DNA of 60,000 bases from Lytechinus pictus. Lineage: Eukaryota. A model generated the notes under the pieces. It did no database searches, was not told the DNA's origin, and was given only the letters and a program-made list of their open reading frames with translations. Each line of letters starts with the position of its first letter. Position 1 is the first letter of the stretch. The stretch spans positions 9,426,001 through 9,486,000 of the forward strand of contig NC_087250.1 in NCBI RefSeq assembly GCF_037042905.1. The letters are read 5' to 3'. Positions 25,401 through 49,400 of this stretch are shown in pieces. A program made the translations under genes and the position numbers.

Positions 25401-28400
25401 AATGCGGAATATTATTAAAAACGTACAAAATAAATAAACCGAGTACCAGAAGAAACTGATCAAACCTTTACAAGGGCACTGCACAAAGGAGACTGGGTCA
25501 TAATGAACAGTAACTTAAAGGTAAATTCCAGTTGTGGTAACGATCTCAAAATGACTTTTTACAGAATCTCATATAATGACCACCCAAGTGTCTGTTTGTA
25601 TGAATAAAAAATATGTGCCAAAGGATTCTGGAAGAAATTGTGTAATTGCTGAGAAATAAGCAAAATAAGCGCGGATTCGGTCACTTCCGTCGGGTCTTTA
25701 TTCCAGCAATAATAATACACTGTCCCGCGTGTGCCTATCTGTGTTGGCGATCTTCAGTGTGATCGTATTTCAGCTTAGATTTTATGATTTCACAGAGTTC
25801 AGTTTATGTAATTGTACCAGATCTAGATCCACGATGATATAGTCATACTTAACCTTGGTTTTACAGACTTTCTCACGAAATTAGTGTTTTACTGCAACTA
25901 CTTTCATTTAGCTTTAACACAGGCTACCTTCAATAATCTTTACTAAGCACATGACAATCATTAAAGGAGAAAGAAACCCTTGAAACCAGCTGAATCCATA
26001 TCAAAGAGAAAAATCAAAGAAACATATTGTTGAAAGTTTGAGGAAGATTGAATGAATAATAAGAAAGTTATGAGCATTTGAATATTGAGATCACTAATGC
26101 CATTTAGATCCTCCCATTGGCAACGCGACCAAGATCTGTGATGTCACACATGTAAAACTCCCTCATTACTTTAGTACTTATTTCACTTATATTCTCACTT
26201 TTATAGAGTCTATCGCAAGTTGAGGTGTTCTCTTTATGAGAGGACAAGTACAGAGGTTTCACAACATGATATCATTGATGAATCGTTTGTCATATGATTA
26301 GAATGAGCAAAAAGAGATATTTTGGGGTATATCTTCAGTGTCCAAAAGGGGAGAGTTGTTCATCGGTGACATCATAGATCTTGGTCGCATTGCCAATGGG
26401 AGGATCTCCATAGCATTAGTGATCTCGACATTCAAATGCTCATAACTCTTCTATTGCTAGTCCTATTTTACTCAAACTTTTGTTGATCTCATTCTTTGAT
26501 TTTTCTGCTTTCACAAAATCTAACTTGCTCCAAGAGTTTCATTCTCCTTTAAGAGATTGGTTCAATCACAGAGAGGCTATAAACCCTCACGTCAATTAAT
26601 TTCCGATTCCAAAGTCACCAAATAACCATAGAAAGACCAATGAAAATGGCCAAATTGGAAGCAAATGTTATTTCTAATTTTGACAAAATATTAAAAATTC
26701 AAACCTTGTGAAAGTGTATCATGTCGGGAAAGCATGACATCATTCCGCCGTATTCCTTCAAGAAATCTTTAGAGAGGCTATAACCCCTCACGTCAATTAA
26801 TTTCCGAATCCAAGGTCACCAAATAACCATAGAAAGACCAATAAAAATGGCCAAATTGGAGCTCAATGTTATTTCTAATTTTGACAAAATATTAAAAATT
26901 CAAACCTTGTGAAAGTGTATCATGTCGGGAAAGCACGACATCATTCCGTCGTATTCCTTCAAGAAATCTTTAGAGAGGCTATAACCCCTCACGTCAATTA
27001 ATTTCCGAATCCAAGGTCACCAAATAACCATAGAAAGACCAATGAAAATGGCCAAATTGGAGCTCAATGTTATTTCTAATTTTGACAAAATATTAAAAAT
27101 TCAAACCTTGTGAAAGTGTATCATGTCGGGAAAGCACGACATCATTCCGTCGTATTCCTTCAAGAAATCTTCAGAGAGGCTATAACCCCTCACGTCAATT
27201 AATTTCCGAATCCAAAGTCACCAAATTACCATAGAAAGACCAGTGAAAATGGCCAAATTGGAAGCAATGTTATTTCTAATTTTGACAAAATATTACAAAT
27301 TCAAACCTTGTGAAAGTGTATCATGTCGGGAAAGCACGACATCATTCCGCCGTATTCCTTCAAGAAATCCTCAAACGGATGCAGGTCGTACTTCGGTTGC
27401 TCGTAGAACAGCTGTCCGATCTCCTCATACGTCTTTCCGGTGAAGTTGAGCGCTTCCGTCAGTTGAACTGATCCTAAAAATGAAAATGTGGAAGTACATG
27501 TAGTTTGGGGCAATGAGAAGCAGTAATAGGAAAAAGAATATCTGGCCAGTTTTGTTTAATCAACTTAATACACAGAGAAAAACAAATTGGTTGGGGCAAA
27601 AAAAGAAGGTACAAATGGCAGCATTTTGCATTGATTCAGAAGCGGCAATGGAAAAAAAAGACATCTTGCAATAATTGTTTCCTCAATTTTCTTCACCAGT
27701 TGGCAATGTTGCCAATGTGGCATACTAGTTTAATACTTGCTTTTTTGTTATTTTCGTTATTTTGCAGTATCAATGTGCAACATTTTTCAGAGGTATGCAT
27801 ATACATGTACATGTACATATTCCTATGCACAGAAAACTAGCTTTGAGAAAGAAAAAAAAATTGACGTGTCCAAAGGACACAGATGCCCCCGCGTAACGCG
27901 ATCAGAAATTCATTCAATATGATTGAACTTAATATCGTGCAGAAACCAATATCCGGACTTCGTCTGCGGGGGCATAAAGAGGTTGAAATAGCAGGATATT
28001 TTTATTAGTTTAGAAAAAGAAAAATGCCTTCATGATTTGAAGGAATAAACTTTAGCCAATCCTTCATTTTGATTGGATAGCAATATCTTAAACTTGCAAA
28101 GGAGAAGTCTCTTTAATGGGGGCTATATATTTCAAATCTTAACACAAGATGGCGCTATTCAACTAATCAATGGTGGAGGATATCTATAGCTTCTGGCCAA
28201 TCCAGTTACGTTTATGGCAAACAAAATGGGGCAAAACAACCCACGTTTGCGCCAGATTTTAGTATATTGCAATGTGTCAGTCCATTTTGGTATTTTTTCT
28301 TGTATGGTTAAACCGATTTTGTTAGTGGATAACAACATCATATTTCCTGTGTCTGGTAAGAGCAGAGCAGAAATTCAATGTAATCAGACCTGCCAACCTC

Positions 28401-46400: not shown

Positions 46401-49400
46401 GCCGGGGTAATAATATCCAAGTCCCTTGGAAGCGCATAGAGACGTTATTCATAATGTGTTATGCACTATACAAGAACTGACTATTATTATTATTAATCAC
46501 TCTTTTAAGTTGACTTTGATGGTGTAACTTGGTAGGCAATTAAGCTTTTCATTCCTTTCAGTTTACTTTCTATCTTAAGATTCTTAATCTCACGTGTGTA
46601 TTTATCCCCCGTTTTGCCCCCCCCCCCCTGCTCAGCCCCTATCTCTGTATTTCTCTCTATCTATAGTAGGCCTATCTCTCTATCAATCACTCTATTTTAA
46701 GACGACTTACTGATGGTGTAACTTGGTAGGCAATAAAGCTTTTCATTCCTTTCAGTTTACTTTCTATCTTAAGATTCTTAATCTATCTATAGTATCTCTC
46801 TATCAATCACTCTAGTTCAAGATGACTTACTGATGGTGTAACTTGGTAGGCGATGAAGCTTTTCATTCCTTTCAGTTTACTTTCTTTTTTGGGATTCTTA
46901 ATCTCGCACGTGTATTTATCCACTGTCTCTTCCCATCTTGGACCGTCCTCTGCTTCCTATTGGCAGAAAAGCAATAAAAAATAAATAAATAAACAAATTA
47001 CTATTTTACAAATTAATAATAATGTACAAAAGGGCTGTAGAGCACAAATAATTCAAGGCTCAGACAAATGGCAGGTCGTGTGGTCCACTGGTTAGAGCAT
47101 TTGTCTCACAAATTCGAATCCCCACTCTGCCATTGTCTCCCCTTTGATAAAAAGGCCCGAGAGTAATATCTGTCATCTATAAGGTCAGCCACTATGACTG
47201 ATTAACCTAGACGTACAATGTTTCCTAGGTAATTGGTTAATCATATACAAGCTTGACGTTTACATGTACCAGCAAAACGCTGTCCTGCCGAGTTCCAACG
47301 GGAGTTACCAGAAACAGAAACAGAAATGATCATACAAACCATTTAAACAGTAGTGATGAGAATTAAAAAGCATTCCTTTATTCATCATAATGTGGAATAT
47401 TATAACCATCCTCAAAATTGTAACGTAATGTCAGAGACATTTTTAAATATATCAAAAACTCATGCTGTGTGAGAATCATATTCTTACATCTGATCACATC
47501 AGTAGAATTTACAAAGAAAATGTAAAGCAAAACAAAATGAAGAGGGTAAAATTTGAATGCAAAATCAGGCCAGCACAATTAACATATAGAGTGTTTACAA
47601 AATTTTAAGACAGGATTTTAAATCAACGGAAGTTTAGCATAATGGTTTCTTCAATATCAATTATTATTAATTTGGTACTAAATAATTTCATCAAGCTAAT
47701 AATGTAATACATATTCTTCAATAATTTAATGCAAATTTTCATCTATTTCTTTTCCAAATTTTTATATATGCTCCTTCACTCATTATATTACTTCACCACC
47801 ATCAGTATTCTTTTCTGTATTACCTCATTTTCATTTCTATCAGTTCATCAATACATACAGCTTTCTGAGGGGAGTGGGTAGTATAAATGAAATAATGGAA
47901 GTTTTTTCAATCAATCGTAACTCTATGGAAATCCATCAGTGTCATAATTTCTTCTACAGAATTTCTTCTTCAGGAAATTTGTAAAATGTCCTTCGTAAAC
48001 AAAGGAGAACACACCAAATTGTCAAGAAATCAATGAATTATGGATTTATATTCATATCAAGAAAATTTTCTGAACAACCAAGCATTGTATATATATATGT
48101 TGACGTTGCTGGCCGTCCATAGTTGCAGTTGATCGGATCAATCGCAAGTCTTAATAATAAAGACAAGCATTCTATCAATTAAATTTACTTACAATTATTC
48201 TGATATTTCCATCTGGCGATGCTCCCTTCTTCGATGCTGCTCCCAATAAATATGCTTCTCCTCCCGTCTTCGCAAATACTGAGAAACGACTAAATTACAG
48301 AAAATAACACCAAAGGATAAACAATTTAATTTACATCTAGCTTGACACGCGCTTACAAAGATCATGACTCGAAAGGTCCTTGTAATTAAAATGTTTTTAA
48401 CCCCACCTAGATTTTTCAGATGCAAGGGCAAACTGGATATGATCCAATAACAGTACAGAAATAGCTGTAAGAGCAGTTCAGCAGTTCAGCAGCATGCATT
48501 TTTTAATTTGAGTTTATTTAAACGAGTGAGGAGGGGCTTTGAACACTGTTAAATCTGTTGAATAGCTAACCCTGTAACAAAATAAAACCATATCATATTC
48601 ATGGTGAATCTGTAATGACTTCTTTTTACTAACAAACATAATTCCATAACATGTAATACACAATATAATGACGGCAGTCAGCTCAGAGCTTTCTGCACAA
48701 TGGCAGCTTCCAGAGATATTCTAACAAGCATGAAACACACAGGGTTCCCACCTTTTCAAGAAATCAAATTCCCCGGATTTTTCCCTGATGAAGTTTAAAA
48801 ATTCCCTGATAATTATTCAAACCCATTCCCAGTTTCGCATGTGTTTAAGTTGTTGCAGTGAATTACAAGTATTTTCAGTATATAAAAACAATAATGTTAA
48901 ACTAATTAGTACTACTACACAGGCATGTAATGGCCTCCCCCCCAAATACAGCCATCCACCATACCCAATAACCACCAAAACAAGTCATTCAACGGATGTT
49001 GTTTTGATATGTAACAAAACATAACAGAGTCTGACTGACTACCGTGCTTTCAACTGTTGGGCCGATCAAAATTCCCTGATTTTTCCCTCATTTGAGAATT
49101 TTTCCCTGATCTGAGGTATTTTTCGTCGAATTCCCTGATTTTTTTCCTGACTGGAAAAGAGTAAAATAATTTTCCCTGATTTCCCTGATGGGTCGGGAAC
49201 CCTGAACACAACGCACCTTTCCACCATAAGCTTGAGAGCAGCAGTTGTCTTGTGCACGCTATCCACGCACTTTGATGGCAACTTCTCCTCAATCATTGCG
49301 AGCTGTCTTTGAAACATCTTCCCCCGTCAGGTTCGGACAAAGCTCAAGAATCCTGGAAGCAACAATCAACCCAAGCGGAGCGGACCGAGTGTGTCGCCCA

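Follow-up and report, generated by a model that had tools for sequence, protein, structure and literature searches.

Why should the ends of three exons of one gene each be repeated, splice donor included, in the intron that follows? This question was raised by a stretch of 60,000 nt from the sea urchin Lytechinus pictus (contig NC_087250.1, positions 9,426,001 to 9,486,000; G000:C6:9426001-9486000 in the 812-Mb genome used for all own-genome searches), called the window in the following text, where a SNX33-like sorting nexin gene is located on the minus strand. The repeats, here named arrays A, B and C, are probably boundary-spanning minisatellites of the kind called "mirages" and known from intron 7 of human F7, which would be near-neutral, carry silent pseudo-sites and occur on both sides of exons.

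Partial exon copies in a SNX33-like gene

The window is eukaryotic DNA with about 35% G+C. The translation of one exon (55 residues) led to the sorting nexin-33-like proteins of L. pictus, Lytechinus variegatus and Strongylocentrotus purpuratus, and amino acids 111-541 of L. pictus isoform X3 (P0001, 541 aa) were placed on the minus strand of the window by tblastn, with several exons 100% identical. Three more exons were found upstream, one inside the window at 59.1 kb and two shortly past its end, at 61.8 and 67.4 kb. A total of 15 coding exons were mapped over a span of at least 45 kb, counting an alternative micro-exon of 30 nt (30700-30729, minus strand), which is used in L. pictus isoform X1 and was located by tblastn of this isoform (P0002) and by isoform alignment. 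The encoded protein is a SH3-PX-BAR sorting nexin (Pfam SH3, PX and BAR_3_WASP_bdg).

Twelve exons, each with 150 nt of flank, were compared with the whole window by blastn, and partial copies were identified for only three of them (46956-46831, 38301-38171 and 27473-27307), with the donor inside every copy. The original prediction had claimed that the 3' end of each exon, its donor and the start of the intron were copied in the same orientation downstream of the real exon; this geometry was confirmed by Tandem Repeats Finder (TRF), blastn and unit alignments, and the claimed numbers of extra copies (two in A, eight in B and three in C) by blastn and unit alignments. All three arrays run head to tail, and their unit 0 is the real exon end with the start of its intron. 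TRF reported them at 46673-46904 (period 120, 1.9 copies, 91% matches), 36030-37477 (period 180, 7.6 copies, 93%) and 26570-27369 (period 201, 4.0 copies, 96%). The exon-derived part of the copies is 74 and 91 nt in A, 62 nt in B and 63-67 nt in C.

Array C is joined to the exon at 27307-27473 (minus strand), which encodes aa 400-455 of the BAR domain (tblastn 100% over 27471-27307; Pfam BAR_3_WASP_bdg, E 6e-18) and ends in a weak donor, AAG/GTTTGA, the slash marking the exon end. Copies C1-C3 (26569-27173, minus strand) are 201-nt units in which the final 63 nt of the exon are followed by a donor equal to that of the exon itself and by 138 nt of intron, and they are 95-96% identical to unit 0. 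C1 and C2 are nearest each other, and C3 has states in common with the real unit. Both the exon-side and the intron-side breakpoints are at GATT, giving a microhomology.

The source of array A is the exon at 46831-46956 (minus strand; aa 181-222, start of the PX domain; donor TCA/GTAAGT; tblastn 100%). In copy A1 (46656-46784, minus strand), the last 74 nt of this exon run on through an intact GTAAGT into about 46 nt of the intron (blastn 88% over 129 nt), and copy A2 (46491-46607, minus strand) contains the last 91 nt with the donor lost through a 2-nt deletion (blastn 87% over 121 nt). The two copies are separated by about 65 nt of filler, and four changes are common to both and absent from the real exon.

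Array B (36030-37477, minus strand) derives from the exon at 38171-38301 (minus strand; aa 261-304, end of the PX domain; donor AAG/GTAAGT; tblastn match 38305-38168 covering aa 260-305; Pfam PX, E 3.5e-7). Its eight units measure about 180 nt and combine the terminal 62 nt of the exon with the donor region and a CT-rich part of the intron; they start at 37424, 37244, 37067, 36887, 36704, 36524, 36349 and 36173 and are 77-80% identical to the real unit. In the identity matrix, B1-B5 were 97-99% identical among themselves and about 80% identical to the real unit, while B7 and B8 at the far edge were more diverged. The donor reads AAA/GTATCG in B1-B7 and AAG/GTTAGA in B8, two CpG sites are now TpG, and about 35 nt of filler were found at a junction.

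The array is separated from its exon by about 750 nt, a gap which holds an insert of 540 bp (37577-38116, minus strand). This insert matches 32586-33115, located in a different intron of the gene, as a 96% copy, and its core is a dispersed repeat of 405 bp (own-genome search, 40 of 1334 first-look candidates scored). Because the exon end and the intron start align as unit 0 once the insert is removed, array B once adjoined its exon directly. The insert is bracketed by a direct repeat of 43 nt (38155-38113 and 37577-37535), which is longer than target-site duplications usually are.

The authentic donor is kept in 4 of the 13 extra copies (C1-C3 and A1), weakened in eight (B1-B8), where GT persists with altered flanks, and lost in one (A2). 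Each donor is followed by an in-frame stop codon (GTT TGA; GTA TCG TAG; GTA AGT CAT CTT GAA CTA GAG TGA). No variation at the three junctions was found among eight annotated isoforms, four from L. pictus, three from L. variegatus and one from S. purpuratus.

Acceptor-side duplications and the link with exon boundaries

The original prediction had seen no duplicated acceptor, and both of the explanations which it offered served this donor-side exclusivity. The observation was wrong, since an acceptor is duplicated within the window itself: at 30720-30922 (minus strand), a 102-nt unit present twice (79% identity; TRF, blastn) spans the acceptor together with about 90 nt of the preceding intron and the opening 10 nt of the micro-exon, the copy lying upstream. 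A second case of the same gene lies 7.4 kb past the window, at the SH3 exon (67436-67562 in window coordinates, L012:7436-7562, minus strand), where a 71-nt unit that takes in the end of the intron, its acceptor and the initial 9 nt of the exon is duplicated at 96.5% identity; the pseudo-acceptor upstream has stayed intact, and the copies are separated by 14 nt of filler. The third is an array at a SAM_3 exon 173 kb from the window (G000:C6:9658887-9659498, L029:2887-3498, plus strand), with 3.4 copies of a 181-nt unit in which the acceptor is preceded by about 119 nt from the end of the intron and followed by about 62 nt of exon (Pfam SAM_3, E 6.7e-14), and here the real exon comes after the last unit.

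Arrays of the same kind were identified in MAP3K19, which is on the same chromosome piece, 2.2 Mb away (G000:C6:7236001-7266000, L009-L011), but on the other (plus) strand and with shorter units of 55-205 nt, mostly not multiples of three. Thirteen exons of this gene were mapped, 12 by tblastn and one by an open reading frame (ORF) with splice-like signals only, and six donor-side and two acceptor-side boundary arrays were found. Boundary-spanning duplications thus occur on 8 of 13 exons in MAP3K19 and on 5 of 15 in the SNX33-like gene. Over the three genes the tally is nine donor-side to five acceptor-side arrays (binomial p 0.42), the latter being two in the SNX33-like gene, two in MAP3K19 and the one at the SAM_3 exon. 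Copy numbers tend to be higher in the donor-side arrays.

Local duplications in both genes were collected by same-strand self-alignment (offset 30-1500 nt, minimum length 45 nt, minimum identity 68%). An exon boundary was contained in 5 of the 11 local duplications of the SNX33-like gene, where random placement expects 1.38 (P 0.0066), and in all eight of MAP3K19, where it expects 1.29 (P 2.4e-7); these P values are post hoc, both genes having been chosen because of the boundary pattern. When TRF arrays alone were considered in the SNX33-like gene, four of six spanned an exon boundary against 0.63 expected (P about 0.001, also post hoc). The junction was located at 0.32-0.69 of the unit length in all nine donor-side arrays. 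The youngest local duplication in the SNX33-like gene is off the boundary: it is a purely intronic tandem duplication at 40158-40772 (about 273-284 nt, 2.1 copies, 99% by TRF).

In total 290 kb were examined, and beyond the three genes the exons considered were those detectable as ORFs with a Pfam match. This screen of ORFs crossing repeat edges covered 200 kb adjoining the window, with 114 ORFs from 29 TRF arrays and 81 from 42 self-alignment regions, and it recovered three of the five known cases of the SNX33-like gene. The 192 kb beyond the gene contained 27 local duplications, and an exon with Pfam support was present at the edge of one of them, namely the acceptor-side SAM_3 case. Weak matches to DUF2573 and DUF755 in the ORF screen were below the curated cut-offs and were disregarded. 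A genome-wide search with the Pkinase family proved unsuitable for finding partial exon copies, with scores for only 125 of 854 candidates.

Triple strong-donor motifs showed no excess in the whole genome over the reversed control, with 176 against 253 (gaps 30-60, spacing 38-68 nt) and 230 against 235 (gaps 60-90, spacing 68-98 nt), counts which are dominated by a few satellites. The satellites concerned, at G000:C9:20985773-20991697 and G000:C2:61651519-61656780, have 61-nt and 74-nt units, each with a perfect AGGTAAGT or AGGTGAGT.

The association with exon boundaries is real in the SNX33-like gene and in MAP3K19, and genome-wide it is unproven. Boundary arrays are frequent in some genes of L. 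pictus, on both exon sides. As for the mutational process tied to exon-intron junctions that the original prediction had proposed, the link with boundaries stands (5 of 11 and 8 of 8 duplications), while its donor specificity does not.

Class of the arrays and known counterparts

Several classes of repeat were considered for the three donor-side arrays. Tandem exon duplication and mutually exclusive exons were ruled out, as the copies hold 62-91 nt of exons which are 126-167 nt long and include no acceptor region. Intron gain by tandem duplication (Rogers model) was ruled out by the annotated proteins of the three urchin species, which are collinear at the three junctions and show neither an insertion nor a gap there. 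As that process is described, the likeness is an intragenic duplication with part of an exon and a splice signal; in the urchin, however, neither a new intron nor a new exon was produced, and the copies are in pre-existing introns and absent from annotated mRNAs.

When a single unit each of B and C, and the copies of A, were searched against the own genome, no full-length match was found beyond the locus, so both transposon-borne exon fragments and a dispersed satellite were ruled out. Matches elsewhere in the genome were to the CT-rich stretch of B and to a 79-nt piece of dispersed repeat in the intron part of C. Coincidence of the C unit end with a transposon end was also ruled out: the dispersed-repeat homology does not stop with the last unit but goes on for another 21 nt, and therefore the intron-side breakpoint merely fell within an older repeat.

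The unit lengths of 201, 180 and 120 nt are divisible by three. Translation of the repeats was ruled out as a reason for this by the stop codons after each donor and by the units of MAP3K19, mostly of other lengths. The differences in array B are mostly silent in appearance; this was rejected as a sign of selection, two of the changes being CpG to TpG.

Three features of a boundary-spanning minisatellite of the mirage or F7 intron 7 type were found: head-to-tail repeats, the authentic boundary in the first unit and a reiterated splice signal. Arrays A and C begin inside the exon, and B does likewise after the 540-bp insert is discounted. The age structure is minisatellite-like too, with C uniformly close to its source and B composed of inner units far more alike to each other than to the source, followed by the more diverged edge units B7 and B8. 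The three urchin arrays are thus further examples of a kind known from amphioxus and a few human genes.

The original mirage paper is reportedly that of Canestro et al. 2002. Mirages of amphioxus have been described in Adh3, troponin C, the globins BflGb6 and BflGb9 and PGBD5 (Ebner et al. 2010, PMC3087553; Pavelitz et al. 2013, PMC3902484). In these accounts either 5' or 3' boundaries are duplicated, splicing is undisturbed, and the repeats are unstable, with inner units homogenised by concerted evolution; they were regarded as possibly a general feature of cephalochordates, with an unclear mechanism (PMC3087553). The urchin arrays are like them in being tandem duplications over a 5' or 3' exon boundary (10 to about 160 bp in amphioxus, as given there), in the reiterated splice signals and in the homogenised inner units with older edges, and the host is in both cases an invertebrate deuterostome. 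Unlike them, they are in a sea urchin, affect several boundaries per gene (on the 5 of 15 and 8 of 13 exons given above), and include one array split from its exon by an insert. Normal splicing is reported to be kept in amphioxus, whereas in the sea urchin we infer it. Our literature search found no report of such boundary arrays in an echinoderm.

Human minisatellites whose first monomer lies across an exon-intron boundary are listed for F7 intron 7 (a 37-bp VNTR), IFI6/6-16 intron 2, CBS intron 13, LMNB2 and PDGF intron 4 (Borensztajn et al. 2006, PMC1557585). F7 has several donors of identical sequence, and splicing was reported to use only the one furthest upstream (PMC1557585). As in the F7 type, the first monomer of the urchin arrays spans the boundary and the authentic donor is followed by pseudo-donors, which are identical in F7; in that type the most upstream donor is the only one, or the main one, to be used. 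The F7 unit as described has 4 nt of exon, unlike the 62-91 nt of the urchin units, and the five human examples have one array per gene, donor-side only as described there. Use of the first donor was established experimentally in F7, while for the urchin it would be expected from the literature and the annotated isoforms. The suggestion of the original prediction that the copies are tolerated because the real donor is still used agrees with this F7 work (PMC1557585) and with the invariance of the three junctions among the eight isoforms.

What the urchin cases add is scale: boundary duplications are present on 5 of 15 and 8 of 13 exons, and every one of the eight local duplications of MAP3K19 is on a boundary. 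An annotated genome with many cases could be used to test by counting whether exon boundaries are mutational hotspots, and would allow the leakage of pseudo-sites into mRNA to be gauged. In annotation work, such arrays give rise to false exons and mis-placed splice sites.

Origin and fate of the arrays

The history of the arrays could be as follows. A local tandem duplication would have copied a segment running from inside the exon, across the splice site and into the intron. This first duplication was probably made by microhomology- or filler-mediated break repair or by replication slippage, since the GATT microhomology and the filler DNA fit such events. The copy number may then have grown by unequal exchange or slippage, because the inner units are near-identical and the edge units older. 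The sole complete exon would stay joined to the first unit in a donor-side array and to the last unit in an acceptor-side array, so the authentic site would adjoin the intact remainder of the exon and be paired across it; for donors this would be the most upstream site, as in F7. Splicing at the exon-paired site would leave the mRNA unchanged, and the extra sites would be silent intronic pseudo-sites that decay with time. No function is suggested for the copies, and the arrays would be near-neutral by-products rather than a device. We consider this explanation, taken as a whole, to be the probable one.

Several points weigh against it. The supposed silence of the pseudo-sites was deduced from the literature and the annotated isoforms, and annotated protein isoforms are blind to transcripts with premature stops. 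Pure neutrality leaves the boundary excess in MAP3K19 (8 of 8) and in the SNX33-like gene (5 of 11) unexplained, and it also leaves unexplained the central position of the junction in all nine donor-side units. Slower decay of the constrained exon copy would give, by our estimate, at most about a two-fold excess. To these points must be added the selection of both genes for their pattern, which makes the P values post hoc, and the single boundary case among 27 local duplications in the neighbouring 192 kb.

Splicing tolerance alone gives no explanation of the boundary preference, and a process aimed at boundaries is a live rival, which we hold as possible though with clearly less confidence than near-neutral minisatellites. 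Such a mutational process would act on both sides of exons without being donor-specific, and splicing tolerance would only let its products persist. In one form of it, the passage from a conserved exon to a highly polymorphic intron, or else some chromatin or transcription feature of boundaries, might provoke breaks or stall repair synthesis. The excess on boundaries in both genes, the central junction in nine of nine donor-side units, and the filler DNA and microhomology, which point to break repair, all speak for it, as does the description of the amphioxus phenomenon as possibly general and of unclear mechanism (PMC3087553). Set against this are the choice of both genes for their pattern, the 1 of 27 detectable in the neighbouring 192 kb (by a screen that recovers three of five known cases), and the triple-donor motif counts below or near those of the reversed control, which carry little weight as satellites dominate them.

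A stronger reading along these lines is doubtful, namely that tandem duplication truly concentrates at exon-intron boundaries in marine invertebrates that are broadcast spawners and very polymorphic, such as sea urchins and amphioxus. Exons might there act as homology islands between diverged haplotypes, and repair synthesis passing from the exon into the diverged intron might dissociate and re-anneal at the exon edge, so depositing repeated units of exon end, junction and intron start on either exon side. If this were true, mirages would be traces left by recombination of haplotypes that have diverged, and they would provide a steady supply of pseudo-splice sites and possibly of new exons.

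It is unlikely that duplications arise anywhere and that only donor-side ones survive, through continued use of the real donor upstream and the harm done by duplicated acceptors. The three largest arrays of the window are donor-side, donor-side arrays lead by nine to five and have more copies, and the rule of the upstream donor is documented for F7 (PMC1557585). However, five acceptor-side duplications were found, two of them in the SNX33-like gene and one of these with an intact upstream pseudo-acceptor; nine to five does not differ from 1:1 (p 0.42). The strict form of this filter is contradicted. The amphioxus mirages are described at both boundaries as well (PMC3087553), and a filter on survival cannot lift boundary duplications over the intronic background.

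Retention of the copies for a function is very unlikely, whether as decoy U1 binding sites that adjust splicing or guard long introns against premature polyadenylation, or as poison exons which lower expression. Array C has four identical donors, and an acceptor-like CCTCTCTGAAG ahead of each C copy could define a 62-nt frame-shifting cassette. Nevertheless, the donors are degraded in 9 of the 13 copies with none intact in the oldest array, and no common design was seen in positions, unit lengths or genes. The original prediction had also read the copies as a way by which decoy donors, new exons and exon-derived satellites can arise. This may be so; the donors of older copies are weakened or lost, and an in-frame stop comes after every donor.

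Two-copy cases of about 96% identity, for example the acceptor duplication of the SH3 exon, fall within the range of allelic divergence in sea urchins. An assembly artefact, in which haplotype differences of a highly heterozygous genome were set in tandem, is nonetheless most improbable, because two haplotypes cannot yield arrays of four and nine units, unit divergence is graded from 80% to 99% with shared derived changes and CpG decay, a 540-bp insertion interrupts unit 0, and the amphioxus counterparts are reported as confirmed by re-sequencing and RT-PCR (PMC3902484, PMC3087553).

Other repeats were noticed in the window. In an older protein model of the SNX33-like gene (P0003, 519 aa), two BAR-domain exons are replaced by a peptide which matches repeated intronic sequence on the minus strand at 33579-33499 (70%) and 29401-29324 (62%); it is probably a mis-annotated exon derived from a repeat. 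Two introns of the gene carry long (ATTC)n microsatellites in the same orientation, at 24285-24725 (about 111 units) and 34357-35251 (about 224 units). Arrays of the 15-mer AGGTAAAAATGGCAG are present at 4631-4836 (14 units) and 6378-6955 (38 units), in opposite orientation and about 1.5 kb apart, and this pair may represent the ends of a mobile element.

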